Numbered from the stretch's first letter, positions 3,804-60,207 are shown. The stretch: DNA of 64,000 nt from Candidatus Eiseniibacteriota bacterium (GCA_026388185.1 JAPLKG010000008.1:273149-337148); one strand, 5' to 3'. Program-made: numbers and translations. The notes: generated from the letters alone by a model not told the origin.

Positions 3804-3823
3804 CGCAGGGATTGGAACGTGAC

Positions 3824-30258: not shown

Positions 30259-30363
30259 GATTTTGTCCCTCGGTGCATTCAGGAGCAGAGCCCGTCGCTG
30301 CGAGCCGGGAGGATGATCCTGGAGTACCGGTCGGGAAGAGGTATCGAGAGGAGAAACGGCCCC

Positions 30364-31737
30364 ATGGCGATCAATCCGCACATCTTCCGCGAATACGACA
30401 TTCGCGGTCTGGCAGAGGAAGAACTCACCGATGAAGTCGCGTTTGCCGTGGGCAGAGCTTTCGGGACTTTCGTTGGTGGTTCAGGCAGGGTTACGGTCGG
30501 CAGGGACGTGAGGTTGAGCTCCTTCAGGTTGAACTCGAGTTTTTCCAGGGGATTGGTCGCCAGCGGTTGCGACGTGGTGGAGCTCGGCGCCGTGCCCACG
30601 CCGTTGGTCTACTTCTCGCTGTTCAACCTCGGCTCGCGAGCGTCCGCCGTGGTGACCGGCAGTCACAATCCCGTACAATACAACGGATTCAAGCTCGCGC
30701 TGGGAGATCTCTCCCTCTACGGACCCGAGATACAGGACGTCAGAAAAATCATAGAATCTTCTCGCTATTCCTCTGGGAAGGGGAGCTCGAGTTCCAGCGT
30801 GATAGTCTCCGCGTACATCGAGGAGATTTCCCGGAAGATCAACGTCGGAAGAAAGCTCCGTGTCGCCATGGACGCAGGAAATGGAACGGCAGGACCCGTT
30901 GCTCTGGAGCTTTTCGAGAAGCTCGGAGTCGAAGTGGTTCCTCTCTTCTGTGAACCCGACGGGAGATTTCCCAATCATCTTCCCGACCCGACGATTCCGG
31001 AGAACGTGGAGGATCTCAGAAAGCTCGTGCTGGCGCAAGGCCTTGATCTGGGAATCGCCTACGACGGAGATGGCGACAGGATAGGGGCGATTGACAGCGA
31101 GGGTAGAATCATCTGGGGAGACCAGCTCGTCGCGATTTTCGCCGGCGAGATTCTCAAGAAGACCCCCGGGGGAACCATAATCTTCGACGTGAAGTGTTCT
31201 CAGGGACTCGAAGAACACATAAGGGTGCTGGGAGGAAGGCCTCTCATGTGGAAGACGGGACATTCTCTGATAAAGCGAAAGCTCAAAGAAACGAAGGGGC
31301 TCTTGGCCGGGGAGATGTCGGGGCACATGTTTTTTGCGGACGACTACTACGGCTACGACGACGCCATTTTCGCCTCCGCAAGGCTGGTGGCTCTGGTTTC
31401 GAATTCGGAGAAGTCTCTCTCTCGTCTGGTGGATGAGCTTCCGCAGTACGTGTCGACCCCCGAGATGCGGCTTGAATGTCCCGACGAGCTCAAGTTTCAG
31501 TTGGTGGACGCGGTGAGGGAGTTTTTCAAGAAGAGTCATAGTGTCATCGAAATAGACGGTGCGCGGATCCTGTTTGGAGATGGCTGGGGTCTCGTTCGGG
31601 CGTCGAACACACAGCCGGCTCTCGTGGCAAGATTTGAGGCGAAGTCTGAGAAAAGGCTTGAGGAAATCAAGTCCGAGGTGCTTGCCGAGGTGGCGCATCT
31701 CAAGTCGGAAATGGCACGCACGCGCTCGGGCGACTGA
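30364..31737 (+). CDS. Phosphomannomutase/phosphoglucomutase (alpha-D-phosphohexomutase family)
   Basis: Active-site serine loop TGSHNP, metal-binding DGDGDR, sugar-binding GEMSGH. Confidence 0.85.
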   Translation: MAINPHIFREYDIRGLAEEELTDEVAFAVGRAFGTFVGGSGRVTVGRDVRLSSFRLNSSFSRGLVASGCDVVELGAVPTPLVYFSLFNLGSRASAVVTGSHNPVQYNGFKLALGDLSLYGPEIQDVRKIIESSRYSSGKGSSSSSVIVSAYIEEISRKINVGRKLRVAMDAGNGTAGPVALELFEKLGVEVVPLFCEPDGRFPNHLPDPTIPENVEDLRKLVLAQGLDLGIAYDGDGDRIGAIDSEGRIIWGDQLVAIFAGEILKKTPGGTIIFDVKCSQGLEEHIRVLGGRPLMWKTGHSLIKRKLKETKGLLAGEMSGHMFFADDYYGYDDAIFASARLVALVSNSEKSLSRLVDELPQYVSTPEMRLECPDELKFQLVDAVREFFKKSHSVIEIDGARILFGDGWGLVRASNTQPALVARFEAKSEKRLEEIKSEVLAEVAHLKSEMARTRSGD

Positions 31738-32999: not shown

Positions 33000-34598
33000 A
33001 TGAGTGCAGATCACAAAGGCTATCTCTGTCTCGTACTTCACGCACACCTTCCGTACGTTAGGCATCCCGAGTACGAGCTTTTCTTGGAAGAGGATTGGCT
33101 CTACGAGAGTATTACGGAAACGTACATTCCTCTTCTGATGGTTCTGGAAAGGCTGACTGCCGAAGGTGTTCCTTACAGAGTGACGATTTCACTTAGTCCG
33201 AGTCTGGTAGGCATGCTGCGGGACCCGCTCCTCCAGGATCGTTATGTTCGACACATCGAGCGATTGATCGACCTTGCCCACAGAGAGGTGGAACGAACCC
33301 AAGGAGATTCGGACTTCAATAGGCTTGCTCGGATGTATCTCGATAGCTTCACGAGCGCCAGGAACTACTTCTTGGATAGATGCCGGAAAGATCTCACTCA
33401 AGGTTTTCGAGACCTCCAGGAACACGGTGGAGTTGAGCTCATACCTTGTGCGGCCACGCACGGATATCTTCCGCTCATGACAATGGTGCCCGAGGCCGTA
33501 CGGGCTCAGATTAGTGTCGCCGCGAGCCACCACGAACGGTGCTTCGGCCGCAGGCCTCGAGGCATGTGGCTGCCGGAGTGCGGGTACGAACCGGGTATCG
33601 ACCGCTTCCTCAAGGAAGCAGGACTGAGATTCTTCTTTACCGACGCCCACGGGATTCTGCACGCTTCTCCGAGACCCAAGCACGGGGTCTTTGCTCCGAT
33701 TTTCTGTCCTTCCGGGACCGCCGCCTTCGGAAGAGACCTCGAATCGTCAAAACAAGTCTGGAGCTCCGTTGAAGGCTATCCGGGAGACTACTGGTACAGA
33801 GAATTCTACCGGGACATCGGCTACGACATGGACTACGAATACATCAGGCCTTACATTTGTGCCGACGGGAAGAGAAAGAACACGGGAATCAAGTATTATC
33901 GCGTGACCGGGCGCACTCCGCGCAAAGAGATATACGATCCTGACGCGGCGCTCGAGAAGGCCGCGATGCACGCGGCAAACTTCATGTTCAACAGGGAAAA
34001 GCAGGTGGAGTACCTCTACGACAAGATGGACGGACGTCGCCCCATCATAGTGGCGCCGTACGACGCCGAGCTTTTCGGACACTGGTGGTACGAGGGACCT
34101 CGGTGGATAGAGTTCCTGATCAGAAAGATGGCCTACGACCAGAAGACTCTGAAACTTGTGACGCCCAGCGAATATCTGGACGAAAACCCTCAGAACCAGA
34201 TTGCCACTCCCTCTCTTTCGAGTTGGGGTTGGAAGGGTTACAGCGAGGTATGGCTTGAGGGCAGTAACGACTGGATCTATCCCCACCTTCACATGGCGGC
34301 GCAGCGGATGGTCGAACTGGCCACGACTTTCAAGGAGCCCACGCCTTTGGAAGGGCGCGCCCTGGCGCAGGCTGCCCGCGAACTACTCTTGGCTCAGAGC
34401 AGTGACTGGGCGTTCATAATGACGTCAGGCACGATGGTTCCCTACGCCGTGAGAAGAACAAAGGAACACGTGGGCAGGTTCACAGAACTGTACGACGGCC
34501 TGAGGTCTCATTGCATCGACGTGAGAAAACTCGAGGAAATGGAATGGAAAGATAACATCTTTCCTGAGATCGACTATCGCGTGTACGCCCCCAGGTAA
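33000..34598 (+). CDS. GH57-family 1,4-alpha-glucan branching enzyme (DUF1957-type)
   Basis: N-terminal LCLVLHAHLPYVRHPE resembles characterised GH57 branching enzymes as I recall them; about 530 aa. Confidence 0.8.
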   Translation: MSADHKGYLCLVLHAHLPYVRHPEYELFLEEDWLYESITETYIPLLMVLERLTAEGVPYRVTISLSPSLVGMLRDPLLQDRYVRHIERLIDLAHREVERTQGDSDFNRLARMYLDSFTSARNYFLDRCRKDLTQGFRDLQEHGGVELIPCAATHGYLPLMTMVPEAVRAQISVAASHHERCFGRRPRGMWLPECGYEPGIDRFLKEAGLRFFFTDAHGILHASPRPKHGVFAPIFCPSGTAAFGRDLESSKQVWSSVEGYPGDYWYREFYRDIGYDMDYEYIRPYICADGKRKNTGIKYYRVTGRTPRKEIYDPDAALEKAAMHAANFMFNREKQVEYLYDKMDGRRPIIVAPYDAELFGHWWYEGPRWIEFLIRKMAYDQKTLKLVTPSEYLDENPQNQIATPSLSSWGWKGYSEVWLEGSNDWIYPHLHMAAQRMVELATTFKEPTPLEGRALAQAARELLLAQSSDWAFIMTSGTMVPYAVRRTKEHVGRFTELYDGLRSHCIDVRKLEEMEWKDNIFPEIDYRVYAPR

Positions 34599-36049: not shown

Positions 36050-37588
36050 ATGGGCAGAGAAAGAAGCGCACTGCTTCTTTTGCTGGTAGTCTCACTCGTG
36101 CTGCTTGCTATTCCCACGTCTTCTTCCGCTTACCTGGAAACTATATGGCTTCGCGGTACCGGTGTTGAGCTCATTCAAGGGTCCGGAACAATCCGTCTTG
36201 CCGGCATGGGGAACCTGACAGTAGCGATTGAAGACGAAAACAATCAAGTTGACCTCTACGATTTCACGGGTAACGTCGCCGCCCTCGCTCTGGACAAGAA
36301 CACGAGCAATGTGGATTCCTGGGCCAGCTACGGCAAGTGGGCTGATGAGAAGGACGATTTCCGATGGCAGGACATCGACATTGTGCAGAGTGGGGCACTC
36401 GTCGTACTGAGAGGCAAGGGCGACTATGCGGGGGGAGTGACCATCTCAACTCGCAGACTCGATCTCAATAGAGTTGACGACCGGAATCTGAGGGAACTGC
36501 TGAAAGTAAGCTTTCCGAAGAGTGAGACTGCAAGGCCCGAAACCTCTCTGGTCGATACGGAGATAACGAGTGACCTTGTGGAGGGATACTACACTCACAA
36601 GGTTTTCGGCCGTGCTTTCCTCGGGGTGCACGGATGGGGGATGTTCGATGCTGAAAAAAAACCCGTGCGACTTCATTATGACCTGACCGACGATGTGGAC
36701 GATTTTGGTGGAGGCCTGGGCCTTGTAGTCCTGCCGACCAAGTGGATGCAAATCGGCGGAACCGTGGACTTGAATTCTCAACTTGTTGAAGCCACAAGCG
36801 TGGACGCTTTTCATCAGGATACGTACACTCAGAAACGTGGCATACTTACTGTTTCATCGCACGCCTTGCTAGAATTCATGGGCAAGCTGCGCGGCGTGAT
36901 GAACTACAAACATTCTTCCTTTGATAGCGACGAGACGTTGGACCTGCACTGGTCTGAGCTCTACGTGTTGAATCCGCAGTTGGAAACGGACGTCCGCATG
37001 AAGCTCAAGGTTGCTTCCGAGTCGCACGTGTCCGATTTTTTCGCCACTCGTTGGATCGTCTCGGGGCTTGGATTACCGCTCACGGTGAGCGGCTATTTTG
37101 ATATGTTGAACGAGGAGTTCTGGCTTCACAACGAGCCGAATGTGATCCTTTGGGTGGACGAGTATGACGAGGCCCTGAACGAATGGAATCTCAGGGGTGG
37201 GGCGTCATACAAGATTGGAGAGAAAGGGCAGGCGGGAATGGAGGTACGTCTCAATAGAGGAAAGTTGGAGAACCGACTCCCCATTGAGGAAGGATACCGG
37301 AATTTCCGCACCCTGGATGTCAGAGGTGGCGGTGAGTATCGCCTCCTGAGATGGCTCGCTCTCAGGGCCGGATATTCCCGAGCTAAAGAAGAGAGAAGCA
37401 TAGGAGTGCCCGAATACGATTTCAATTCGAACACGCTCTCTGTGGGTGCTGGGTGCTTCCTGAGAAAAGATAGCCTGAGTCTCGACGCCGCTTTCGTCAA
37501 CAAGGTGACCAGGCCGGAACAGGACATCGGTGACGGGAGAGAGACCAGGGATCAAAGCTTTACACTGTACGGTCGGTTCCTCTTCTAG
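36050..37588 (+). CDS. Putative outer-membrane beta-barrel protein
   Basis: Signal peptide LLLLLVVSLVLLAIPTSSSA; alternating amphipathic pattern; C-terminal ...YGRFLF with terminal Phe. Confidence 0.4.
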   Translation: MGRERSALLLLLVVSLVLLAIPTSSSAYLETIWLRGTGVELIQGSGTIRLAGMGNLTVAIEDENNQVDLYDFTGNVAALALDKNTSNVDSWASYGKWADEKDDFRWQDIDIVQSGALVVLRGKGDYAGGVTISTRRLDLNRVDDRNLRELLKVSFPKSETARPETSLVDTEITSDLVEGYYTHKVFGRAFLGVHGWGMFDAEKKPVRLHYDLTDDVDDFGGGLGLVVLPTKWMQIGGTVDLNSQLVEATSVDAFHQDTYTQKRGILTVSSHALLEFMGKLRGVMNYKHSSFDSDETLDLHWSELYVLNPQLETDVRMKLKVASESHVSDFFATRWIVSGLGLPLTVSGYFDMLNEEFWLHNEPNVILWVDEYDEALNEWNLRGGASYKIGEKGQAGMEVRLNRGKLENRLPIEEGYRNFRTLDVRGGGEYRLLRWLALRAGYSRAKEERSIGVPEYDFNSNTLSVGAGCFLRKDSLSLDAAFVNKVTRPEQDIGDGRETRDQSFTLYGRFLF

Positions 37589-43539: not shown

Positions 43540-46002
43540 ATGAGTTTCGTCAAGCGGGTGATGCCGCCGAGCTTCTTCGTCGTCTGTGGGTTGGTGGTGG
43601 GTGTGATGCTGGCTGCCAACCCTTGCCTTGCCCGGGGGCCTATGGACGATCCTTTTGAAGGTGTTCCCGGTGCGCAAGGAATCTACTGCTTAAGGCCTCC
43701 CAACGTCTACACACACGACGTTGGAAAGGTGACGCTCCAGGTCACAAACCTTGGCTTTTTCGGCAATCCTTACATCGAGGCCATCTCGATGGGTTGGCGG
43801 GGTGGAGAGTATCTTTACGTGGCAGGGTTGTGGATAGGGGCAATGGACGAAGACAATGTTCCTCACGTGTCCACGGCCGCGTATCAGGCGGAATTCAGAC
43901 CCAGCATGAACACTCTTGACCACATTTACGTCTCCTACGAAGGCATGCCTGGCGGCAAGAGGTATGGACTCGGGAATAGCAGCGGTGACGACGACGGCGA
44001 TGGGAAGGTTGACGAAGATTTCCAGGACGGTTATGACAACGACGGCGACGGCAAGATTGACGAGGACTTCGGGGCCATCGGCCAGCAGATGTTCTCGTGC
44101 GTATACAGAGATGACACTCCGGAGGCCAGGGCCTCTTACACCGAGCACGTGCCCTGGGGGCTCAAGGTGGAGCAAAGGAGTTTTGGTTGGGCCGTGAGCG
44201 GTTCCAACGAATTCATAGGTGTAGACTACAACATCTATCATGATGGTTCCGACGTCATGCGCAACGTCTACGTAGGCTTCTTCGTGGACGCGGACGCCGG
44301 GCCGAAGGGTCAGGAAAATCCCGGTTACTGGACAGACGATCTGGCCGGATACGCCGACACTCTTGTGCAGATATACGACGCCACGCAAATTGCGGGATGC
44401 GAGACTGACACTATTCGGATTCAAGTTGCATACATATGGGACGTTCCGGACAACGGCACGACTGCAAAGGGTGGGGACGTGGATGGAGCCGTAGGTGTTA
44501 TGTTTCTCGGCCACAAGACCGATCGCACCGGCGTAACCGCTCCCGAGTCGGTCAAGGTCGCCACTGTCCGATGGTTCAGTTCGACGGCGCCTTACCCGGA
44601 AGGCGACCCCGGAACCGACCCTGAGCGATACGACCTCATGGCCAGCCGTCGGATTCCGAGTCGAAACGCCACCACTCCAAACGACTACAGATTCCTGCTC
44701 TGCGCCGGGCCTTTCCCGGTTGTTTCGCCGGGAGATGTTCTTCCCTTCCAGGTGGCCTTCGTGGTCGGCAAGGGCTTTGACGGAATGCTGGAGAACGCGA
44801 TAGCGGCTCAGAGAATTTACAACGGCCAGTACTACAGCATGGACCCCAGCGCTACGTGGGGCTGGAACGGCAAGGAATCGCTGGTCAAGTGCGAAGGGGT
44901 GGGGTGCTACCAGTGCGTGGATGATGATTGCGACTCGCTCACTTCCTGCGTGATCATAAAGACGGGACAACAGGTCGCCGCCGATCTGGATTGCGACCTT
45001 TGCACCGGCGTCGCTGGCAAGGAAAGCCTTGTCCACTGGGTGGGTTCCACCGCGCCGCCGCCCCCTATTTGGAATGACGATCCTACTCTCTGGAATGATG
45101 ATCCAACCGATGATCCTGTTCCGCCCGCTGCTACGGCGTCGATGGTTGGCCCTGCCGGCGACAAGAAAGTCGTGCTGCAATGGGACAACTCGAGTGAGAT
45201 AGTGCCCGATCCTCTTTCTGCAAAGCTGAGGTTTGAGGGATACAGAATCTGGAAGGCCGCAAACTGGAAGCGGCCCGTGGGCGAAGTGGGTCCTTCCACC
45301 GACCTGTGGATGTTGATGGGAGACTTTGCGTATCATCCTATTGACAGTCTGGGCGCGAATTCTCCCAAGTATCTGGGCAACACCAGGGAATGGGGTGAGA
45401 ACATCGCGTACGTCATCTGCGACACGTCTCTTGCATATTATGACTCGGACACACTCGCACTTCCTGGAGAGGAGGGTGAGGAACCGGACACCGTGATAGT
45501 GCATCACTATCCGGTGGGCAGGTACACGTTCACTGACCCCAATGTGATCAACGGGATGATCTACTTCTACAGCATTACGCCGTATGCGAAATGGTTTGAC
45601 ACTGCTTCGCAGGAGTGGATTGAGATTCAGACTCAGCCTGCTGCCACCGAGAACATTGCCATAATTCCGAGGGCAAACGCCCAGGACAAGCTTGGAAAGG
45701 TCACGGTAGTGCCGAATCCGTACGTGGGAGCCGCGGCGTGGGATCTGACCCCCAGCGACACTGACCCGACCGGCACCAAGATAGGCTTTTTCGGCCTGCC
45801 GAAGTGCAAGAGCACTCTTCGCATTTTCAGCCTATCGGGTGATCTGATCAGAGAGATGGCTCACGACGGTTCTGACGGCAACGGGACAATCTACTGGAAC
45901 ATGGTCACGAGAAACGGGCAGGACGTGGTGAGTGGAGTCTACCTGTTCTCCGTGGAGAGTGATTGGGGAACGTACGTAGGGAAATTCGTTATAATCAGAT
46001 AG
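43540..46002 (+). CDS. Large secreted protein with Asp-rich calcium-binding-like repeats and a T9SS-type C-terminal sorting domain
   Basis: Signal peptide; DDDGDGKVDEDFQDGYDNDGDGKIDEDF; Cys-rich block; C-terminus ...TLRIFSLSGDLIREMAHDGSDGNGTIYWNMVTRNGQDVVSGVYLFSVESDWGTYVGKFVIIR resembles Por/T9SS CTDs. Confidence 0.55.
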   Translation: MSFVKRVMPPSFFVVCGLVVGVMLAANPCLARGPMDDPFEGVPGAQGIYCLRPPNVYTHDVGKVTLQVTNLGFFGNPYIEAISMGWRGGEYLYVAGLWIGAMDEDNVPHVSTAAYQAEFRPSMNTLDHIYVSYEGMPGGKRYGLGNSSGDDDGDGKVDEDFQDGYDNDGDGKIDEDFGAIGQQMFSCVYRDDTPEARASYTEHVPWGLKVEQRSFGWAVSGSNEFIGVDYNIYHDGSDVMRNVYVGFFVDADAGPKGQENPGYWTDDLAGYADTLVQIYDATQIAGCETDTIRIQVAYIWDVPDNGTTAKGGDVDGAVGVMFLGHKTDRTGVTAPESVKVATVRWFSSTAPYPEGDPGTDPERYDLMASRRIPSRNATTPNDYRFLLCAGPFPVVSPGDVLPFQVAFVVGKGFDGMLENAIAAQRIYNGQYYSMDPSATWGWNGKESLVKCEGVGCYQCVDDDCDSLTSCVIIKTGQQVAADLDCDLCTGVAGKESLVHWVGSTAPPPPIWNDDPTLWNDDPTDDPVPPAATASMVGPAGDKKVVLQWDNSSEIVPDPLSAKLRFEGYRIWKAANWKRPVGEVGPSTDLWMLMGDFAYHPIDSLGANSPKYLGNTREWGENIAYVICDTSLAYYDSDTLALPGEEGEEPDTVIVHHYPVGRYTFTDPNVINGMIYFYSITPYAKWFDTASQEWIEIQTQPAATENIAIIPRANAQDKLGKVTVVPNPYVGAAAWDLTPSDTDPTGTKIGFFGLPKCKSTLRIFSLSGDLIREMAHDGSDGNGTIYWNMVTRNGQDVVSGVYLFSVESDWGTYVGKFVIIR

Positions 46003-48666: not shown

Positions 48667-48731
48667 TATTTCACCAATCTTGTGAGAACGGACGTCTTTT
48701 CCGTGTGGTTTTCTATTCGGTGGAGGTCAAA

Positions 48732-49769
48732 GTGAGGATTGCAATCCTGACCGGTGGTGGTGATTGTCCCGGTCTCAACGCTGTCATAAGGGCTGTGGTC
48801 AGGAGGACGTTTCAAAGCTACGGAGGTCAAGTTCTGGGCATAAGTGACGGGTGGGCGGGACTAATTGAGGGAAGGCTTTCCCCGCTGGACATGCGCGCAG
48901 TTTCTGGGATTCTTCCCAAAGGCGGGACTATACTGGGCACGTCCAGAACGAATCCGTTCAAGGTGGAACAAGGTGTGGAGAGGATCAGGGAAAATCTGGC
49001 GAAATTCGGCATCGAGGCCTTGATCGTGGTTGGAGGGGAAGACACCCTGGGCGTGGCCACCACACTTTTCGAAATGGGTTTCAAGATCGTCGGCGTACCG
49101 AAGACAATCGACAATGACCTCTCCGGGACGGACTACACCTTCGGATTTGACACGGCCGTGAACGTCGCCACTGAGGCCATAGACAGGCTCCACACCACTG
49201 CCGAATCCCACAACCGCGTCATGGTGGTGGAAGTCATGGGCAGGCACACGGGTTGGATAGCAGTGGAGGCCGGCATGGCAGGTGGGGCCGATGTCGTGCT
49301 GATACCCGAGATTCCCATCAGCGTGGACGAGGTCTGTAAGCTCATCGTGCAGCGTCATCAGAAAGGGAAGGACTTCAGTATCGTTGTCGTGGCGGAGGGC
49401 GCCAAATTCCAGGACAAGGACATCTCTCGCATGATTGTGCAGGACGAAAAGGTGGACGCCTTCGGTCATGTTCGTCTGGGCGGAATCGGTGCCATTCTGG
49501 CTCGTGCGATAGAGGAGAAGATAGGGTTCGAAACCAGGTACACGGTGCTGGGACACATACAGAGGGGAGGCACCCCGACGGCGTTCGACAGGGTCCTCGG
49601 GACTCGATTCGGCGTGGCCGCCGCCGACCTCGTGGCGAAGGGGGATTTCGGCAAGATGGTCAGCCTTCAGGGCAACAAGATCAGGGCCGTGGACCTCAAG
49701 GAAGCGATCGGCAAACTGAAGACGGTCGACATGGAGCTCTACGAGATGGCAACCATCTTCTTTGGTTAG
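48732..49769 (+). CDS. pfk: 6-phosphofructokinase, probably pyrophosphate-dependent
   Basis: GTG 48732 five nt after GGAGG; GGDCPGLNAVIR; GGEDT (Asp at the ATP/PPi discriminating position) and PKTIDND (Lys). Confidence 0.8.
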   Translation: MRIAILTGGGDCPGLNAVIRAVVRRTFQSYGGQVLGISDGWAGLIEGRLSPLDMRAVSGILPKGGTILGTSRTNPFKVEQGVERIRENLAKFGIEALIVVGGEDTLGVATTLFEMGFKIVGVPKTIDNDLSGTDYTFGFDTAVNVATEAIDRLHTTAESHNRVMVVEVMGRHTGWIAVEAGMAGGADVVLIPEIPISVDEVCKLIVQRHQKGKDFSIVVVAEGAKFQDKDISRMIVQDEKVDAFGHVRLGGIGAILARAIEEKIGFETRYTVLGHIQRGGTPTAFDRVLGTRFGVAAADLVAKGDFGKMVSLQGNKIRAVDLKEAIGKLKTVDMELYEMATIFFG

Positions 49770-49843: not shown

Positions 49844-50773
49844 GTGACATTGGTGACCAATCGCGAGCTGCTGCAGAGAGCAACCAAAGAAGGTTACGCA
49901 GTCGGAGCCTTCAACACTAACAATCTGGAATTCCTTCAGGCCGTCACCTCAGCGGCAAGTGAAGAGAACTCACCAGTGATAGTCGCAATCTCCGAGGGGG
50001 CGCTCAAGTATGCGGGATTCGGCATGATTGTGACAATGGTGAGAGAGATTGCCACGAGACTGCCCGTGCCCGTTTCGCTTCATCTTGATCACGGCAAGGA
50101 TGCTGCCGTTATCAAGGAATGCGTCGAGGGCGGATTCACGTCGGTCATGGTAGACGCCTCGGACAAGGAATTCGACGAGAACGTCCGGATTACGAGGAGT
50201 GTCGTTGAGCTTGCAAGACCCAGGGGTGTTTCCGTCGAGGCCGAGTTGGGCAGGCTTTCAGGCATAGAGGAGGGGATTTCGGTGACCGAGAGAGAAGCAT
50301 TTCTGACCGACCCTTCCCAGGCGGCCGAGTTTGTCAAGAGAACGGGTGTAGACTCTCTGGCGGTGGCCGTGGGTACGTCGCACGGTGCTTACAAATTCAA
50401 AGGAGAGTCCGTCTTGGTGATTGAGAGGATACGCGAGATAAGGGATGCGACGGGTGGTTTACCGCTCGTTCTTCACGGCGCCTCCGGTGTGAGTCAGGAG
50501 CTTGTTGCGAAAGCGACACGCTATGGAGCAAGTCTGGGAAGGCCCGCGGGTGTTCCGGATGACAGCATCAGAGAAGCAATAAGACTGGGCGTGGGCAAGG
50601 TGAACATAGACACAGACATGAGGCTTGCGTTCATGGCCTCGCTGAGGGAGACCTTGTCGACCAAGACTAGCGAGTTCGATCCTCGTAAGATACTGGGTCC
50701 GGCCAGAGATTCCGTCAAAGAGGTGGTAAAGGGGAAGATGAGGCTCTTTGGGAGCAGCAATAGGATTTCTTGA
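49844..50773 (+). CDS. fba: Class II fructose-bisphosphate aldolase
   Basis: SLHLDHG and TSHGAYKF metal/substrate motifs; about 309 aa. Confidence 0.85.
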   Translation: MTLVTNRELLQRATKEGYAVGAFNTNNLEFLQAVTSAASEENSPVIVAISEGALKYAGFGMIVTMVREIATRLPVPVSLHLDHGKDAAVIKECVEGGFTSVMVDASDKEFDENVRITRSVVELARPRGVSVEAELGRLSGIEEGISVTEREAFLTDPSQAAEFVKRTGVDSLAVAVGTSHGAYKFKGESVLVIERIREIRDATGGLPLVLHGASGVSQELVAKATRYGASLGRPAGVPDDSIREAIRLGVGKVNIDTDMRLAFMASLRETLSTKTSEFDPRKILGPARDSVKEVVKGKMRLFGSSNRIS

Positions 50774-50928
50774 CGACGTTCGCCGGGCTCGAAGGGCCTT
50801 GTCGGCATTCTCGGCAACTCCTCCCACCTTTCAGGGGTGAACATCACGCCCCGTCATCGCCTGCAGCGGCTCAGTGGCAGATTCTACTCCGATCTGCGCA
50901 CGCCCTTTCACTCTCGGTGGAAACCGCG

Positions 50929-51957
50929 ATGGGAAAATCAAGAATAATCTGCACCTTGGGGCCTTCCAGCCAGGACGCGTCCACGCTCGGCGCCATGATG
51001 CGAGCGGGGATGGCCGTGGCCAGGCTCAATTTCTCTCACGGCACTCATCGCGAGCACCAATCTCGACTGGACCTCGTGAGGAGACTAAGCGAGAAACACG
51101 GCCGGGACGTGAGGATACTTCAGGATCTCCAGGGTTACAGAATAAGGATCGGCAAGTTTAAGGGCCGAAAATGGATTGTGCTGAAGGCGGGACAAATAGT
51201 TTTTCTGACCAACAAAAGCGAATTGACGGGCCGGGATATCGTGCCTTTCGACTACAGGGGTTCGCTGGCCGACATCAAGACAGGTAGTTCAATATACGTT
51301 GACGACGGCAACATAGCGTTGAAGGTCCGGACTAAGACCAAGGACTACATTCGGGCGGAGGTGATCGTTCCGGGAGTGCTCAAGGAGAACAAAGGCGTCA
51401 ACATCCCGGAAGTCAATCTGCGATTCAAGGGGCTCACGGACAAAGACAGAACGGACCTCGAATTCGGCGTCAGGAACAGAGTCGACTTCGTCGCCCAGTC
51501 GTTTGTGAGCGGCAAAGAGGACATTCTTTGTCTGAGAAGCGTCCTACGTGAGAGCCGAGCCGATTGCCGAGTGATCGCAAAGATCGAGAATCGCAGGGGG
51601 ATAGACAACATAGACGAGATACTGAGTGTGTCCGACGGCATCATGATAGCCCGCGGAGATATGGGGGTCTCTTTGCCGATATTCCAAATTCCTGTGCTCC
51701 AAAAGATGATTATCAGAAAGTGCAAACAAAGAAGAAAATTCGCCGTCACGGCCACTCAGATGCTTGAAAGCATGACGGAGCACCTGAGGCCCACTCGCGC
51801 AGAAGTGAGCGACGTGGCCAACGCGATGATAGACGGCTCGGATTACCTCATGCTCTCTGCAGAAACGGCCGTCGGCAAGCACCCCGTGGAGGCCGTTGAG
51901 ATGATGACCGAGATTATCGATTTCACGACGCGTTCTCTCGGAAAACTCCATTCTTGA
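50929..51957 (+). CDS. pyk: Pyruvate kinase, short form lacking the C-terminal alpha/beta domain
   Basis: SRIICTLGPSS and ARLNFSHG motifs, PK signature VIAKIENRRGIDNIDEI, MIARGDMGV; protein ends after the A domain at 342 aa. Confidence 0.75.
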   Translation: MGKSRIICTLGPSSQDASTLGAMMRAGMAVARLNFSHGTHREHQSRLDLVRRLSEKHGRDVRILQDLQGYRIRIGKFKGRKWIVLKAGQIVFLTNKSELTGRDIVPFDYRGSLADIKTGSSIYVDDGNIALKVRTKTKDYIRAEVIVPGVLKENKGVNIPEVNLRFKGLTDKDRTDLEFGVRNRVDFVAQSFVSGKEDILCLRSVLRESRADCRVIAKIENRRGIDNIDEILSVSDGIMIARGDMGVSLPIFQIPVLQKMIIRKCKQRRKFAVTATQMLESMTEHLRPTRAEVSDVANAMIDGSDYLMLSAETAVGKHPVEAVEMMTEIIDFTTRSLGKLHS

Positions 51958-52009
51958 GAGACTCGTCGAGAGGCAAGGTGCGAGGAGCCTGGAGCGCAGG
52001 TAGAACAAC

Positions 52010-53113
52010 ATGAAGAAGACGGCACAACCGAAGAAACGAATTGCAGTTCTCACCGGCGGAGGAGATTGCCCCGGCATAAACGCGGTCATCAGGGCGGTGA
52101 CGAAGAAGGCGATCGTTGCGTACGGCATGGAAGTCATCGGAATCGAAGATGGCTACGAAGGAATCATTCACGGCTGGCATAGGAAGCTTACGTACGAAGA
52201 CGTTTCCGGAATACTTACACTGGGTGGTACGATACTTGGCGCCTCCAAGACGGCAAACCCATACAAGTACGCTGTGAAGCGAAAAGGCAAGCTGGAGTTC
52301 GAGGACGTCTCGCGCGTCGCGATCGACAACCTGCAGAAGCTCGACGTAGCGGGCCTTGTGTGCATAGGCGGAGATGGAACGCTGGGCATTGCACGCGACC
52401 TGTGCGAAGACGGCGTCCGCGTCGTCGGAGTGCCGAAGACGATCGACAACGACATCAGGGGGACCGACGTCTGCTTCGGTTTTGACTCCGCGGTGTGGGT
52501 CGCCACGGAAGGTATTGACAGGATTCACACGACTGCCCAATCGCATCATCGCATAATGATTGTGGAGGTGATGGGGCACAAGGCCGGATGGATTGCCCTT
52601 CATTCCGGAGTCGCCGGTGGAGGAGACATCATCCTCATCCCGGAGATTCCGTATGACGTTGAAAAGATCGCTTTGAAGATACAGGAACGGCATCACAGAC
52701 GCAGGAGCTTCACCATCGTGGTCGTGGCCGAGGGGGCAAGGCCAAAGGGAGGAGACGTCGTAATACAGAGGATGGTCAAGGAAAGCGCCGATCCTGTCCG
52801 CCTGGGCGGCGTAGGCTTTGTTCTTGGAGAAAAATTGGAGCGACTCACAGGTTTCGAAACACGAACCACCGTAATGGGACACGTTCAGAGGGGGGGGAGC
52901 CCGACGCCGTTTGACAGGGTACTGGCCACCGAGCTGGGTGCAAGGGCGGTGGACATGATAGAGGAAAAAGCCTTCGGCCACATGGTGGGGGTGAAAGGAA
53001 ATGCGCTCGTCGACGTCCCTTTGGGCGTTGTGACGGGAGGGCCAAGGGTGGTGCCGCGCAACCAGAGATTGTTAGAGGCGGCGCGCGCCCTGGGGACATA
53101 TTTCGGCGACTGA
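52010..53113 (+). CDS. pfk: 6-phosphofructokinase (ATP-type GGDG signature)
   Basis: GGDCPGINAVIR, CIGGDGTLG, PKTIDND, MGHKAGWIA. Confidence 0.85.
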   Translation: MKKTAQPKKRIAVLTGGGDCPGINAVIRAVTKKAIVAYGMEVIGIEDGYEGIIHGWHRKLTYEDVSGILTLGGTILGASKTANPYKYAVKRKGKLEFEDVSRVAIDNLQKLDVAGLVCIGGDGTLGIARDLCEDGVRVVGVPKTIDNDIRGTDVCFGFDSAVWVATEGIDRIHTTAQSHHRIMIVEVMGHKAGWIALHSGVAGGGDIILIPEIPYDVEKIALKIQERHHRRRSFTIVVVAEGARPKGGDVVIQRMVKESADPVRLGGVGFVLGEKLERLTGFETRTTVMGHVQRGGSPTPFDRVLATELGARAVDMIEEKAFGHMVGVKGNALVDVPLGVVTGGPRVVPRNQRLLEAARALGTYFGD

Positions 53114-53144: not shown

Positions 53145-54863
53145 GTGAATTTCCGAAAGGAAAAGACGAGGATTGCCTATTTTTCCATGGAGATAGGTCT
53201 TGATTCGAAGATACCCACCTACAGCGGAGGTCTGGGGGTCTTGGCCGGGGACACGATAAGATCCTGCGCCGATCTGAACGTGCCCATTATTGCTGTCACC
53301 CTTCTGTATCGAGACGGATACTTCCGCCAGAAACTGGACGCGTATGGAAACCAGGAGGAACTGGCGTCGGAGTGGAATCCAGGGGAACTCCTGGCGCTAT
53401 TGCCCGTCAAGGTGAGCGTTCAGATAGAGACGAGAACCGTGTCTGTCCAGGCGTGGGAGTATCTAGTGACGGGTATTGGCGGCCACGTTGTGCCCGTGAT
53501 TTTCCTGGATGCGGATGTTCCCGAAAACGGAGCGTACGACCGCAGCCTGACGCATTGCCTCTATGGCGGCGACGACAAGTACAGACTTTGCCAGGAAGTG
53601 ATATTGGGAGTCGGTGGGGTGAGAATGCTCAAGGAACTCGGATACCACGAGATAGTGCGGTACCACATGAATGAAGGTCATTCGAGTCTGCTGACGCTCG
53701 AGCTGCTGAACGAGAGAAAGAAATCTGGCGCTGGAAGGAAAAGGGTCGACAAGATTGACGACACAAGATCCGATTGGGACGTTGACGGAGTGAGGAGGAT
53801 GTGTGTGTTTACGACCCACACGCCTGTTCCCGCGGGACACGACCAATTCTCTTATAGTCTTGTGAGTCAGGTGTTTGGCGATTTCATTCCCGTGGACTTC
53901 CTGAAGCAAATTGGCGGCGGCGACACGTTCAACATGACTCTTCTGGCCATGAATCTGAGCCACTACGAGAATGGCGTTGCAAAGGAGCACGGCAAGGTCT
54001 CTCAAGTGCTGTATCCGGGATATCACATCGACTCGATAACCAACGGGATCTATTCGGCCAACTGGGTCTGCGACAGCTTCAAGGGGTTGTTCGACAAATA
54101 CATTCCGGGCTGGAGAAACGACCCGTTCTCTCTGCGTTACGCCCTCAGTATCCCCAAGGAAGAAATATGGAGCGCTCATCGAGAGGCGAAAAGAGAGCTC
54201 ATAGACTATACGAACGCCAAGGCAAACGCGGGCATGGATGGCGAAGTTCTGACGATCGGCTTCGCGCGCAGGGCGACGGCTTATAAGAGAGCGAATCTCG
54301 TCTTCTCTGACGTCGAGAGATTGACGAGTATTGCCGGAACCTCCGGCAGGGTGCAGTTCATCTTCTCCGGCAAGGCCCACCCCAGAGACATGCAGGGGAA
54401 GGAGCTGATCAAGCAGGTGGTTGCCGTGTCCCGGCGACTCGGAGACCAAGTCAGGGTCGCTTATCTGGAGAACTACGACATGGAATTGGCGAGAATGCTG
54501 ATTGCCGGAGCAGACCTGTGGCTCAACACGCCTAGAAAACCTGAGGAGGCTTCCGGAACCTCCGGCATGAAGGCGGCTCACAACGGAGTTCCAAGCCTCA
54601 GCATTCTTGACGGCTGGTGGATCGAAGGATGCATCGAGGGTCTCACGGGATGGTCGATCGGGACGGTCGTGGCTGAGGAGAGCAGCGACGTCGAGGACGC
54701 CGGTTATCTGTATGACAGGCTGGAGAAGGTAGTCATTCCCACGTTCTACGGGAACCGTGACAGGTGGATCGAGATGATGCGGCATTCAATCGCCATCAAT
54801 GGTTCATTCTTCAACACACACAGGATGGTGCTGCAGTACGTACTGAACGCCTACACGTATTGA
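53145..54863 (+). CDS. glgP: Alpha-glucan (glycogen/maltodextrin) phosphorylase, short GT35-type
   Basis: N-terminal IAYFSMEIGLDSKIPTYSGGLGVLAGD and PLP-site region EASGTSGMKAAHNGVPSLSILDGWW. Confidence 0.85.
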   Translation: MNFRKEKTRIAYFSMEIGLDSKIPTYSGGLGVLAGDTIRSCADLNVPIIAVTLLYRDGYFRQKLDAYGNQEELASEWNPGELLALLPVKVSVQIETRTVSVQAWEYLVTGIGGHVVPVIFLDADVPENGAYDRSLTHCLYGGDDKYRLCQEVILGVGGVRMLKELGYHEIVRYHMNEGHSSLLTLELLNERKKSGAGRKRVDKIDDTRSDWDVDGVRRMCVFTTHTPVPAGHDQFSYSLVSQVFGDFIPVDFLKQIGGGDTFNMTLLAMNLSHYENGVAKEHGKVSQVLYPGYHIDSITNGIYSANWVCDSFKGLFDKYIPGWRNDPFSLRYALSIPKEEIWSAHREAKRELIDYTNAKANAGMDGEVLTIGFARRATAYKRANLVFSDVERLTSIAGTSGRVQFIFSGKAHPRDMQGKELIKQVVAVSRRLGDQVRVAYLENYDMELARMLIAGADLWLNTPRKPEEASGTSGMKAAHNGVPSLSILDGWWIEGCIEGLTGWSIGTVVAEESSDVEDAGYLYDRLEKVVIPTFYGNRDRWIEMMRHSIAINGSFFNTHRMVLQYVLNAYTY

Positions 54864-55041: not shown

Positions 55042-56046
55042 ATGGCAATCAGAGTTGGCATTAACGGATTTGGACGGATAGGAAGGCTTGTTCTCAGGTC
55101 CGGATACAAGGAAAGCGGCCTCGAATTCGTTGCGGTAAACGACGTGACTGACGTAGCCACGATGGCGCATCTGCTCAAGTACGACTCGGTCCACGGGATA
55201 TTTCCTGACGAGATAAAGAGGGAGGCCGAGACCATCAAAATCGGTTCCAGCGCCAGCGTGAAGGTATTCTCCGAGAAAGACCCCGCCAATCTACCCTGGA
55301 AGTCGCTGGGTGTGGATATTGTGATTGAATCCACGGGCAAGTTCACGGAGAGGGATCTGGCCGCCAAACACATTTCCGCTGGGGCGAGAAAGGTGATGAT
55401 TTCCGCGCCGGGAAAGAAGGCCGACGCGACTATTGTGATGGGAGTAAACGAGAACGTCTACGATCCTTCCAAGCACCACGTTGTTTCCATCGCTTCGTGT
55501 ACGACGAACTGCCTTGCCCCCGTCGCGAAGGTGCTCAACGACAAATTTCAGATTGTTCACGGCCTCATGACGACCATACACGCTTACACGAACGATCAGG
55601 TGATTCTTGATTTTCCGCACAAGGATCTGAGAAGGGCCAGGGCGGCGGCCGTTTCAATGATTCCCACGACGACGGGCGCGGCGAAGGCGATCGGCCTCGT
55701 GCTGCCGGAGCTCGAAGGGAAGCTGGACGGCCTGGCAGTGAGGGTGCCCGTGGTTGACGCCTCTCTGGTGGACCTGGTCGTCGACGTGAAGAAAGCCACG
55801 ACCGTGGATGAAGTCAGAAACGTCTTCAAGGAAGCCGCGAATGGCGCCATGAAGCGCTACCTGCAGTACAACGAGGACCCCATCGTCTCTGTTGACATCG
55901 TGGGAAATCCGCACAGTTCAATCGTCGACGGACCCCTCTGCTCGGTCATCGGCGGCACCATGGTCAAGGTTCTGGCCTGGTATGACAACGAGTGGGGTTT
56001 CTGTCAGCGTGTGATTGACCTTCTCAGACTCATGATGAAGACCTGA
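55042..56046 (+). CDS. gap: Glyceraldehyde-3-phosphate dehydrogenase (type I)
   Basis: INGFGRIGR NAD-binding motif and active site ASCTTNCLAP. Confidence 0.95.
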   Translation: MAIRVGINGFGRIGRLVLRSGYKESGLEFVAVNDVTDVATMAHLLKYDSVHGIFPDEIKREAETIKIGSSASVKVFSEKDPANLPWKSLGVDIVIESTGKFTERDLAAKHISAGARKVMISAPGKKADATIVMGVNENVYDPSKHHVVSIASCTTNCLAPVAKVLNDKFQIVHGLMTTIHAYTNDQVILDFPHKDLRRARAAAVSMIPTTTGAAKAIGLVLPELEGKLDGLAVRVPVVDASLVDLVVDVKKATTVDEVRNVFKEAANGAMKRYLQYNEDPIVSVDIVGNPHSSIVDGPLCSVIGGTMVKVLAWYDNEWGFCQRVIDLLRLMMKT

Positions 56047-56096: not shown

Positions 56097-57299
56097 ATGC
56101 TGAGAAAGCTCAGCGTGAGGGATCTTCCTCTCTCGGGAAAGAGAGTACTTACCAGAGTCGATTTCAACGTTCCTCTCGACAAAGAGGGGAACATCTCGGA
56201 TTCGACGCGTATTGAAGCCTCCATGCCTACCATTCGCTACATGGTTGAGAAGGGCGGGCGAATAGTCCTGATGTCTCATCTCGGCAGACCGAAGGGCAAG
56301 GTCGTTGCAGGGATGAGCCTGGCCCCGGTGGCCGATAAGCTCCGGAGTTTTCTCCGCAAAGACGTTCTGTTCGCAACGGATTGCATAGGCGATCCCGCAA
56401 TGAAGGCGGCGCTCTCCCTCAAGGACGGAGACGTTGCATTGCTGGAGAATCTCCGATTCCATCGGGAGGAAGAGGCCAACGACGAAAAATTCTCGCGCGA
56501 ACTGGCTTCGCTCGGAGAGGTCTACGTCAACGACGCCTTTGGTTCGGCCCACAGAGCCCATGCGTCTACGGTCGGTGTGACCAGATACATCAGTCTGTGC
56601 GCGGCCGGCTTTCTCATGCAGAAGGAGGTCGAGTATCTGGGAAAACTCCTGGAAGAGCCCAAGCGACCTTTCGTGGCGGTGTTTGGCGGTGCGAAGGTGT
56701 CGGACAAGATCGGCGTCGTTCGGAACCTCGTTGACAAGGTCGACAAGATCCTCATAGGTGGGGGCATGATGTTCACGTTTCTGGCCGCCAAGGGATTGAA
56801 GATCGGGCAATCGATTCTGGAAGAGGAGAGCATTCCCGTTGCCAAAGAGATAATGGAGAGAGCCAGGAACAAGTCCGTTGAACTCATCCTGCCCGTTGAT
56901 TGCGTCGTGTCCCCCTCCGTGAAAGACGCCGCCGAGACCAGGATCGTCCCCGTTGAAGAAATCCCCGAAGGACTTGCCGGTGTTGACATAGGTCCTCGCA
57001 CGATAGAGCAATTCAGGGGAGCCCTGGCCGGTGCCAAGACAGTGCTTTGGAACGGACCGATGGGCGTTTTCGAAATAGAAGCCTATAGTGCCGGCACGGA
57101 GGCCGTGGCTCGCATGCTCGCAGAAGCCACTTCCTCGGGTGCGACCACGATCGTCGGTGGAGGGGATTCCGCGGCGGCGATTGTCAAGGCCGGCTTGGAG
57201 AATAGGGTCTCTCACGTGTCCACCGGTGGTGGGGCTTCTCTTGAGTTTCTTGAGGGTCTGGAACTCCCCGGGGTGGCCGCCCTCACAGACAAGCGTTGA
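56097..57299 (+). CDS. pgk: Phosphoglycerate kinase
   Basis: RVDFNVPL N-terminal motif and full-length Pgk organisation. Confidence 0.95.
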   Translation: MLRKLSVRDLPLSGKRVLTRVDFNVPLDKEGNISDSTRIEASMPTIRYMVEKGGRIVLMSHLGRPKGKVVAGMSLAPVADKLRSFLRKDVLFATDCIGDPAMKAALSLKDGDVALLENLRFHREEEANDEKFSRELASLGEVYVNDAFGSAHRAHASTVGVTRYISLCAAGFLMQKEVEYLGKLLEEPKRPFVAVFGGAKVSDKIGVVRNLVDKVDKILIGGGMMFTFLAAKGLKIGQSILEEESIPVAKEIMERARNKSVELILPVDCVVSPSVKDAAETRIVPVEEIPEGLAGVDIGPRTIEQFRGALAGAKTVLWNGPMGVFEIEAYSAGTEAVARMLAEATSSGATTIVGGGDSAAAIVKAGLENRVSHVSTGGGASLEFLEGLELPGVAALTDKR

Positions 57300-57314: not shown

Positions 57315-58067
57315 ATGCGGAAAAAGATCGTAGCAGGCAATTGGAAGATGTATAAAACCCCCGGCGAAGCCGTTTCTCTGGTGACACAGATCATCGCGTC
57401 CGCTCCTCCTCGTTCGGATCGTGACGTCGTGCTCTGCCCTCCGTTCACGGCTCTTTCCCGCGTGTCACAACTGCTCAAGGGCTCGCGTATCGAGCTGGGA
57501 GCGCAAAACCTGCACTGGGAGAAGGAGGGGGCCTACACCGGAGAGATCTCCGCGCCGATGCTCAAAGAGCTGGGATGCGAATACGTGATTGTGGGACATT
57601 CTGAGCGCAGGCAGTACTTCGGCGATGACGATTCGGTCGTTGCCAAGAAGCTTGGGGCGGTGCTTGCGGAGGGAATGACGCCCATCCTCTGCGTCGGCGA
57701 GAAGCTGGAGGAGAGAGAGGCAGCGAGAACGGAAAGTGTGCTTGAGTCGCAGATCAAGGGAGCTCTGGGCGGCTTTGACGCAAGGCAACTCGTGGACCTG
57801 GTGGTTGCATACGAACCCGTCTGGGCGATAGGGACGGGTAAGACAGCCACGTCGGAGATGGCTGTGGGAGCTCATAAATTCATAAGGAAGCTGCTTGACA
57901 CCATGTTCGGGTCTCCCTTCGCAGAGCAAACCCGAATTCAGTACGGGGGAAGCGTCAAACCGGAGAACGCTTCCGAACTCCTTGGGGAGTCCGAGATTGA
58001 CGGAGCACTCGTAGGTGGGGCGAGCCTCAAGGCCGATTCGTTCCTGAGAATCGTCGCCGCCGGTTGA
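57315..58067 (+). CDS. tpiA: Triosephosphate isomerase
   Basis: AGNWKM, IVGHSERR, AYEPVWAIGTG motifs. Confidence 0.95.
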   Translation: MRKKIVAGNWKMYKTPGEAVSLVTQIIASAPPRSDRDVVLCPPFTALSRVSQLLKGSRIELGAQNLHWEKEGAYTGEISAPMLKELGCEYVIVGHSERRQYFGDDDSVVAKKLGAVLAEGMTPILCVGEKLEEREAARTESVLESQIKGALGGFDARQLVDLVVAYEPVWAIGTGKTATSEMAVGAHKFIRKLLDTMFGSPFAEQTRIQYGGSVKPENASELLGESEIDGALVGGASLKADSFLRIVAAG

Positions 58068-58777: not shown

Positions 58778-58862
<85 letters not shown>

Positions 58863-58944: not shown

Positions 58945-59964
58945 TCATCGTACACGCTCCCACTTCCGCACTGTAACTGAGTCTCTAACAGCGAGCATTT
59001 CGTAGATTGAACCGTCTGTCCCTACAATCCAGGGCCCCTTGCCGTAGGTTAAAGTCGAGCGTTCATACCTCGGGAAGTCAATCACGGCGAGCATTCTTCC
59101 ATCTGGAGAATATTTGCTTATCCTTTCGGACGAAGCAGTATCTGTGACCACGAAACTCTGTAGATAGACATTACTCAGACTATCTGTCCCCAAAGAGTCT
59201 CCCGGTAACTCTGCCCAGCCTTTGACCAACTTGCCTTCGTCATCAAACAGAATCGGGTTCCCTTTTACATCCACCTTGCTGTTGCACCGCGCGAAGGACC
59301 GAAAAGGACCTGTGGATGCAAAGATCCCTTCCCGCAAACTCGACAATTGGCTAGAGTCAGGGAGAACTCTTCCCCTTTCCACGAGCTTTATTGATTTCGT
59401 TGCGCGCCAATCGGCTAAATAGACATTCTCATGTTGATCCGACACAATCCCCGCCGAATTGAACTGCGGATACCCCTCTTCCGAACGGCAGAAACTCCAA
59501 GGCACTGCGACTGGCACATTTCTCACTGAATCCACGCCTGCTGCCTTCAAGAACACCCTATATCTGTCCTCCGCATCAGAAGTCTCGCAGAGAATGTATA
59601 TGTCGCCGTTAGGGGGCAGAGTCATGTCCGTGGGAAACAGTAGGTCAACTTGCCAGGCCACGGCCTTGATCGTGTCCACGAATGCTCCATTATTTCCGTA
59701 GACCTTTATGTTTCCTTTCACCCCATCATATATGTAGATGTTCCCATCGGCGCCCATAGTGAAAAATAGAGCCCCGAGATAATTCCCATCGTATCCGTAG
59801 ACCTTCTTCAGTCCGAATTCACTCTCCCCGCCACCGTACTGAGCCTGAATGAGGTTTCGGGGTCTGTAATTCTCGGCCGACAACGCGGTAGCAGGAATGA
59901 GCAAGGCCAAACCCAGCAACGCCGCGATCGATACCAGTCTTGTATTGACTCTCGAACAATCCAT
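58945..59964 (-). CDS. Hypothetical secreted protein, beta-propeller-like repeats; foreign codon usage
   Basis: ATG 59964 (complement) nine nt after AAGGAGG; signal peptide RLVSIAALLGLALLIPATALSAE; repeated GNIYIYDG / GDIYIL / NVYLAD segments; third positions A/T-rich. Confidence 0.5.
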   Translation of the reverse strand: MDCSRVNTRLVSIAALLGLALLIPATALSAENYRPRNLIQAQYGGGESEFGLKKVYGYDGNYLGALFFTMGADGNIYIYDGVKGNIKVYGNNGAFVDTIKAVAWQVDLLFPTDMTLPPNGDIYILCETSDAEDRYRVFLKAAGVDSVRNVPVAVPWSFCRSEEGYPQFNSAGIVSDQHENVYLADWRATKSIKLVERGRVLPDSSQLSSLREGIFASTGPFRSFARCNSKVDVKGNPILFDDEGKLVKGWAELPGDSLGTDSLSNVYLQSFVVTDTASSERISKYSPDGRMLAVIDFPRYERSTLTYGKGPWIVGTDGSIYEMLAVRDSVTVRKWERVR

Positions 59965-60207
59965 CAGCCACACCTCCTTAACTCGGAGAACTGGCGGATA
60001 ACACGCACCCTAGCCCAGGATGGTGATCAAGATACAGGTGCTTTACACTAAACGCCCAGAGAAGCTCAGGAGCGATTCGGGGGACACCGATACACTATAC
60101 TCTCCGATTCCTGTGCTTTGGGTCAACGCGTGACACGAGAGCACGGGATCCGTTCAAAATCCCTGACAGTTTTGCCTGAAGTTGGTCCTGTCGCAACATG
60201 GGTGAAA

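Follow-up and report, generated by a model that had tools for sequence, protein, structure and literature searches.

A pyruvate kinase without a C domain, encoded in a glycolytic operon of Candidatus Eiseniibacteriota

Introduction

Pyruvate kinase (PK) is a textbook allosteric tetramer; its C domain contains the effector site and contributes half of the contacts in the tetramer. In the PKs of solved structure, the effectors FBP, AMP and sugar monophosphates bind in pockets in or against the C domain, and two A-A dimers are joined through the C-C interface to form the tetramer. A separate N-terminal domain is absent from the bacterial enzymes. With regard to monovalent cations, K+-dependent PKs carry Glu117, Thr113, Lys114 and Thr120, and K+-independent PKs carry Lys117, Leu113, Gln114 and Leu, Ile or Val at position 120 (rabbit numbering; PMC8835810). 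The PK of Aeropyrum pernix, with Arg at position 117, was reported to be cation-independent (PMC4374775). A recent study on Bacillus subtilis showed that allosteric control of PK is needed for clean gluconeogenesis (PMC11834443).

A 2020 review of the PEP-pyruvate-oxaloacetate node, which includes unusual quaternary states, contains no PK without a C domain (PMC8100219), and no description of natural C-domain-less PKs was found in the full-text literature, the coverage of which was poor for subscription journals. A clade of such enzymes, to which the PK described below belongs, is apparently undescribed.

Results

Domain content of the 342-aa pyruvate kinase

The PK gene was analyzed within a stretch of 64,000 nucleotides from a Candidatus Eiseniibacteriota bacterium (GCA_026388185.1, JAPLKG010000008.1:273149-337148), here called the window. 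The gene is located at 50929..51957 on the plus strand, with ATG at 50929 and TGA at 51955-51957, and its product of 342 aa was found by PF00224, TIGR01064, an AF2 model and Foldseek to consist of the A barrel and the B lid, without the C domain. PF00224 was matched with an E-value of 6.4e-114, residues 3-323 covering profile positions 3-328 of 328 without a gap, the inserted B domain included. The TIGR01064 score was 439.5 bits, exceeding the equivalog cut-off of 306.4; however, only profile positions 2-335 of 476 were covered, about 140 C-terminal positions being absent, and no PF02887 (PK_C) was detected in the protein by the Pfam search. The B domain, inserted in the barrel, corresponds to about residues 71-168 (51139..51432, plus strand); its assignment was supported by an all-beta region at residues 72-158 of the AF2 model, by the uninterrupted PF00224 coverage and by conservation of the nucleotide-side lid residues K155, G156 and N158. 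The last barrel helix (residues 319-339) with a 3-residue tail was placed at 51883..51954 on the plus strand, as judged by the AF2 helix and the end-point common to the clade, and it is at this point that full-length PKs run on into the C domain. The following 52-nt spacer (51958..52009, plus strand) is too small for a C domain, and the six-frame search with a C-domain HMM revealed no remnant of one in it. The downstream phosphofructokinase (PFK) gene is complete (Pfam profile 1-277 of 277) and starts with ATG at 52010.

An earlier note on this DNA had described a stop after 342 aa with the next gene beginning 52 nt later, which these coordinates confirm. It had also assigned N-terminal, B and A domains to the protein. 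The B and A domains were indeed found; the separate N-terminal domain was not, as the protein begins directly at the first barrel strand, in the same way as E. coli PykF. The absence of the C-terminal domain was correctly recognized too, but its size had been put at about 120 aa and the missing part is nearer 135-140 residues. Its fold, score and active site identify the protein as a pyruvate kinase, but one that departs from the canonical architecture in having no C domain.

Integrity of the gene

A C-domain HMM was built from 108 full-length relatives and searched against all six-frame stop-to-stop segments of the 64-kb window. No C domain was found in any frame, the best score being at the level of noise (E 0.61, 5.8 bits), and when a full-length PK HMM was run over the six-frame window, the sole match was the PK locus itself, at profile positions 2-336 of 472. 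As a control, the C-domain HMM was applied to full-length PK loci and detected the domain in 27 of 27 (E 1e-30 to 1e-47), one of them partial at a contig end. In contrast, no C domain was detected near any of the 67 short-form loci examined (within 3-10 kb; 480 kb of flanking DNA), which represent at least five phyla.

The DNA itself was compared with two independent Logan assemblies, from separate sequencing runs, which encoded the identical protein without a mismatch over 1281 nt, a segment comprising the PK gene with 100 nt upstream and 152 nt downstream and extending into the second PFK gene; the same two contigs showed 2 mismatches over 15.8 kb. An orthologue (L004), 77.6% identical, aligned to the PK without gaps and had its stop at the same codon. 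Between the two sequences dN was 0.136 and dS 1.13, with synonymous sites near saturation, and the resulting dN/dS of 0.12 indicates that the gene is under purifying selection.

A frameshift near 51900..52010 hiding a full-length PK, which the earlier note had named as the finding that would overturn its reading, was therefore rejected together with assembly error in general, since the six-frame C-domain search was blank and the independent assemblies were identical. Nor did a split or decayed gene, its other suggestion, hold up: a nearby split gene was rejected by the contrast of control and short-form loci and by the want of any neighbor shared across phyla, and decay was contradicted by the conserved length and the low dN/dS.

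Active site, predicted structure and cation site

The earlier note had found the catalytic signatures intact, and the alignment with PykF bears this out in full. All 11 catalytic and ligand residues (R32, N34, S36, D66, R73, K220, E222, D246, T278, S312 and E314 in PykF numbering) are present in the PK and did not vary among 124 clade members. For an AF2 model made with 60 clade sequences, the pLDDT was 93.0 and the pTM 0.90; it displayed the barrel, the lid and the terminal helix. By Foldseek, this model was superimposed on residues 1-339 of E. coli PykF with a TM-score of 0.93 and an rmsd of about 2 A over 337 columns. Its top 50 PDB matches were 461-587 residues long, and no solved structure of a short PK was encountered, as the PKs among the listed PDB sequence matches and the top-50 Foldseek matches all had at least 461 residues.

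The cation-site and hinge motif, D66-L-Q-G-Y-R-I-R-I74 (rabbit PK 112-120 in the PykF alignment), is encoded at 51124..51150 on the plus strand. L67, Q68 and I74 match the Leu, Gln and hydrophobic residue of the K+-independent signature at positions 113, 114 and 120, and position 117 is occupied by Arg71 in place of the Lys of the K+-independent (Lys117) cluster. The clade as a whole carries the motif D-L-E/Q-G-Y-R-I-R, with Arg at position 117 and Tyr in place of the usual hinge Pro: L67 was found in 124 of 124 members, E or Q68 in 124, Y, F or H70 in 123, R71 in 123 and I or V74 in 121. Among 126 full-length relatives, on the other hand, P70 was found in 119 and Arg at position 71 in 18. With Leu, Gln, Arg and Ile at 113, 114, 117 and 120, and with the cation-independent PK of A. 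pernix also bearing Arg, the short PK is expected from its sequence signature to be K+-independent.

When the clade was compared with the 126 full-length relatives, further replacements were apparent: P70 to Y, F or H in the A-B hinge, A62 to K or R, E250 to S, E254 to Y or F, A308 to Y or F, and A191 to Q. P70, E250, E254 and A308 are near-universal in the full-length relatives, so kinetics or even specificity could differ in the short enzymes. The substitution P70Q of PykF is among those that became fixed during the long-term evolution experiment with E. coli, and the variant protein has been crystallized; hinge residue 70 is therefore functionally sensitive. A match to PF03328 (HpcH/HpaI aldolase / citrate lyase) was also recorded, at 21 bits against a gathering threshold of 25 and over residues 177-242 only. 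It is a resemblance at the level of the superfamily, as expected for any member of the barrel superfamily.

A family of short pyruvate kinases and its origin

A database protein 100% identical to the PK is annotated 'MAG: pyruvate kinase [Candidatus Eisenbacteria bacterium]' and is encoded on a contig of 534,862 bp. The best 120 database matches, taken as one per 90% cluster, were 61-80% identical to it, all had 336-377 aa and matched PF00224 only; their hosts belonged to Zixibacteria, Planctomycetota/Phycisphaerae, Omnitrophota and Nitrospirota. An exhaustive search of 50%-identity representatives gave four best matches (52-57% identity) of 342-346 aa, and full-length PKs of 470 aa appeared only at 49% identity or below. 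When one genome per GTDB species was scanned, the short form was carried by at least 52 genomes, mostly of Omnitrophota, with Zixibacteria, Pirellulales/Planctomycetia, Scalindua, Ignavibacteria, Elusimicrobia and Endomicrobiellum also represented. The ORFs of 51 of those listed had 332-362 aa and that of one had 408 aa. All of the short-form genomes among the matches listed (at least 52) were MAGs or SAGs of uncultured organisms, so the form is widespread but, as far as seen, confined to uncultured lineages. The last-helix motif ...MMNxIIKFTE was conserved, and the clade members all stopped 5-20 residues beyond it.

Two members deserve separate mention. The 408-aa ORF (L058:354-1577, Omnitrophota STB_143) has a tail without a match to the PK C-domain HMM and may have arisen by a stop-codon change, with read-through, or by fusion. 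The Omnitrophota MAG BS750m-G22 (JADHWH01) contains two short-PK loci, L018 and L034, both of 344 aa, which implies that a single genome can have the short form in duplicate. Two of the best representative matches, P0125 (1280 aa) and P0130 (1051 aa), contained two PK-like stretches each; from their sequences they may be tandem or fused PKs.

Neighbor-joining (NJ) trees were constructed on the 328 columns shared by short and full-length sequences, with the K+-dependent PykF as outgroup. The short forms were monophyletic in the point tree and in 84 of 100 bootstraps, and they nested among full-length PKs whose cation-site motif is G-P-K. Their nearest full-length relatives were P0126 (472 aa), L067 (470 aa; L067:3001-4410, a Clostridia MAG) and L073 (471 aa; L073:3001-4413, an Aerophobetes MAG), a trio that was monophyletic in 100 of 100 bootstraps and was joined by P0133 in the point tree. 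These three proteins already possess E68, Y70, F167, Q191 and a non-Glu residue at position 250, as marks of the short clade, and their C domain is normal (E about 1e-32 with the C-domain HMM). They would seem to be extant relatives of the ancestor in which the domain was lost. On these NJ trees, a single loss of the domain in an ancestor of the G-Y-K type is the simplest reading and has moderate support.

An unrelated PK of 348 aa and of the K+-dependent type (DTKGPEVR) was noticed in a Clostridiaceae MAG, FI22 (L084:3001-4047), with no C domain nearby. It raises the possibility that C-domain loss occurred more than once, although a single case of this kind could also be a truncation.

The glycolytic operon

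The PK gene is the third of a cluster in the order PFK-FBA-PK-PFK-phosphorylase-GAPDH-PGK-TIM, in which all genes are on the same (plus) strand and separated by short spacers. The cluster begins with PFK-1 (48705..49769; motifs GGEDT and PKTIDND; PF00365 E 3.9e-114; TIGR02483 478.6 bits), followed by a class II fructose-bisphosphate aldolase (FBA; 49844..50773; PF01116 E 2.2e-103; TIGR01859 372 bits). Downstream of the PK are PFK-2 (52010..53113; GGDGT and PKTIDND; PF00365 E 4e-104), an alpha-glucan phosphorylase (53145..54863; TIGR02094 550 bits) and, as identified by Pfam and gene call, GAPDH (55042..56046), PGK (56097..57299) and TIM (57348..58067), the last gene of the cluster, after which secG follows. 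The same gene order was found in five further Eisenbacteria loci, with protein identities of 76-80%; one of them (L093) is without the phosphorylase. Terminator-like sites were no more frequent than in shuffled sequence.

The location of the PK within a glycogen-to-pyruvate module argues for a working glycolytic enzyme, and in this Eisenbacteria genome the short PK, to judge from the operon, most likely serves as the glycolytic PK. Neither a second pyk nor a PPDK or PEP synthase gene was found within the 64-kb window. Among the lineages examined, glycolytic neighbors of the short PK were seen only in Eisenbacteria; no PK neighbor was conserved across phyla, the genes next to it in Zixibacteria, Phycisphaerae, Omnitrophota and another lineage being unrelated.

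The two PFK paralogues flank the PK gene on either side of the aldolase-PK pair, and this pairing is kept in six of six Eisenbacteria operons. According to the rule for PFK residues 104 and 124, Asp with Lys denotes a PPi-dependent and Gly with Gly an ATP-dependent enzyme. By this rule we take PFK-1 to be of PPi-type appearance, with an unusual Glu at position 103, and PFK-2 to have a mixed Gly/Lys signature.

The aldolase-PK spacer

The spacer between the aldolase and PK genes (50774..50928) measures 155 nt, which is unusually long for this operon, and spacers of 153-178 nt were found in the five orthologous Eisenbacteria operons. Alignment of the six operons revealed a conserved block, CCGTCATCGCCTGCAGCGGCTCAGTGGCAGATTCTAC, at 50851..50887 on the plus strand, and this conservation was retained although the synonymous sites of the flanking gene are near saturation. 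A structured RNA leader was considered for this spacer and rejected, as no Rfam match was obtained in it and its consensus RNA fold was weak and without a covariation term. The block is possibly a promoter or operator of pk internal to the operon.

Other genes of the window

Genes of glycogen and sugar metabolism are abundant upstream of the glycolytic operon. They are a GH57 amylase/4-alpha-glucanotransferase (9443..11710), a PEP-utilizing protein of 586 aa with PTS enzyme I architecture (13497..15257), a phosphoglucomutase (30313..31737) and a GH57 branching enzyme (33000..34598). Also in the window are a sigma-54 gene (3812..5233) and, just past secG, a tRNA gene (58778..58859), the sole Rfam match at gathering level in the window. 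At the thresholds used, no Pfam match was obtained for the ORFs at 43540..46002 (820 aa), 36050..37588 (512 aa) and 58945..59973 on the minus strand (342 aa). The 820-aa ORF is flanked by a gene for a TonB-dependent receptor and one for a PorV-like protein, an arrangement kept in an orthologous locus of Eisenbacteria.

Discussion

The above data are best explained by a naturally minimal PK, one of the possibilities that the earlier note had entertained. The length and the stop are conserved in at least 120 protein clusters and at least 52 species genomes, the gene shows purifying selection, the catalytic residues are invariant and the gene is part of a glycolytic operon. We consider it probable that the protein is a genuine and functional PK of A and B domains, K+-independent, non-allosteric and not forming the canonical tetramer, with a glycolytic role in its operon. 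Such an enzyme would catalyze the conversion of PEP and ADP to pyruvate and ATP in the standard Mg2+-dependent active site. Arg71 (rabbit 117) would provide the positive charge that K+ provides in the K+-dependent PKs, making the enzyme independent of K+. Since the protein ends at the last barrel helix, it should have neither an effector pocket nor a C-C interface, and with the C domain the basis of the canonical allosteric tetramer would be gone; this expectation is drawn by analogy from the structures of other PKs. The short PK would then be a constitutive enzyme, a monomer or an A-A dimer, whose control would lie in expression and substrate levels and not in allosteric effects of sugar phosphates or AMP. 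In Eisenbacteria it would be transcribed in the glycogen-to-pyruvate operon and act there as the glycolytic PK.

Other explanations were weighed against this one. That the gene is a pseudogene cut short, or an ordinary pyk of 470 aa interrupted by a frameshift from sequencing or assembly, has in its favor only the length of about 70% of a normal PK, and the chance of this being right is negligible in view of the identical DNA of independent assemblies, an orthologue with the same stop at a dS of 1.1 and a dN/dS of 0.12, the want of a C-domain remnant in any frame, the complete PFK gene beginning 52 nt downstream and the same length in hundreds of homologues. An enzyme of PK fold with altered chemistry, in which a remodeled hinge and active-site surroundings would serve another phosphoryl acceptor or a PEP or oxo-acid lyase-like reaction, is suggested by the loss, specific to the clade, of P70, E250 and E254, which are near-universal in the full-length relatives, and by the weak HpcH/HpaI similarity (21 bits, cut-off 25). 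All known PEP-, Mg2+- and nucleotide-binding residues are invariant, however, the TIGR01064 score is far over its cut-off and the gene lies within a glycolytic operon, which make this reading very improbable. Somewhat more room, though still little, is left for a PK that is split or hetero-oligomeric, with the 342-aa protein as its catalytic subunit and with a C domain or an unrelated regulatory partner, encoded elsewhere, joined to it in trans. The search in the host genome was confined to the 64-kb window, and the clade-specific surface changes could in principle create a new interface; yet the search for a C domain was negative both in that window and in the 3-10 kb around the 67 short-form loci, which cover at least five phyla, no neighbor is conserved across phyla, and the short clade appears to descend from full-length ancestors by loss.

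The alternative with the greatest weight concerns the physiological role only and is compatible with an active enzyme. The genome might also encode a full-length allosteric PK (or PPDK or PEP synthase), the short PK being a constitutive or condition-specific second isozyme. Many bacteria have two PK isozymes (PMC8100219), the short PK occurs at two loci (L018 and L034) of an Omnitrophota MAG, and in other phyla the gene context is non-glycolytic. Against these points stand the location in a core glycolytic operon in six Eisenbacteria loci and the finding of no second PK in the 64-kb window, and we regard an accessory role as rather unlikely, if worth keeping in mind.

A broader proposal can be made for the clade as a whole, namely that one ancient loss of the C domain gave rise to a multi-phylum clade of two-domain PKs, marked by D-L-E-G-Y-R and E250S, which act as the sole glycolytic PKs of their hosts without tetramer or allostery. 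We offer it tentatively, as a reading that is less likely than not to hold. If it is true, the allosteric PK architecture held to be universal would be dispensable, and the hosts would have to avoid futile PEP/pyruvate cycling in some other way, for example by operon-level control or by PPi-dependent reversible glycolysis. The clade is also of use as an experiment of nature in how the PEP-pyruvate node may be handled without PK allostery, and it supplies a minimal PK with which to ask what catalysis requires of the fold. Such an enzyme would surprise enzymologists who hold the A/B/C architecture and tetrameric allostery to be universal, and would offer them a clean experimental system. There is also a practical side: annotation pipelines assign the bare name 'pyruvate kinase' through a full-length model, so that regulation of the enzyme is tacitly taken for granted when the metabolism of Omnitrophota, Zixibacteria, Planctomycetota and Eisenbacteria is reconstructed.

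Comparison with known pyruvate kinases

The short PK is no new kind of system or biology but a familiar enzyme that has lost one domain, present in the databases without having attracted comment. A 352-position 'pyruvate kinase' model of barrel-only length, NCBIfam NF005234 (PRK06739), indicates that short PKs were known to annotators before. Membership in this family was tested and rejected, the PK scoring 300.4 bits against a cut-off of 564; six other short PKs gave 254-340 bits, all under 564, among them the clade members P0018 (307) and P0124 (296). No model is specific to the clade, whose members receive their name from the general TIGR01064.

The PK is 44% identical to E. coli PykF (PDB 1PKY, 4YNG; 470 aa) over residues 1-337 and shares with it the A barrel, the B lid and the same catalytic, Mg2+, PEP and nucleotide residues. 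It differs from PykF in ending at about PykF residue 339, without the C domain, in having the cation site L67/Q68/R71/I74 of the K+-independent type where PykF has T/K/E/T, and in carrying Tyr in place of the hinge Pro70. In its cation site it resembles the K+-independent 'cluster II' Lys117 PKs, such as E. coli PykA and V. cholerae PKII, which have L113, Q114, a hydrophobic residue at 120 and a basic one at 117, and it shares Arg at 117 with the PK of A. pernix (PMC4374775). The cluster II enzymes, however, are full-length tetramers on which AMP or sugar monophosphates generally act as activators by way of the C domain (PMC8100219), whereas the short PK has Arg instead of Lys at 117 and no C domain.

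In the NJ tree the short PK nests among full-length PKs of the GPK type, and it comes nearest to the full-length 'G-Y-K/E' PKs (P0126, L067 and L073), which share the clade marks E68, Y70, F167, Q191 and a non-Glu residue at position 250. These proteins are 47-48% identical to it and, unlike the short clade, keep the C domain; at position 71 they have K or E instead of R.
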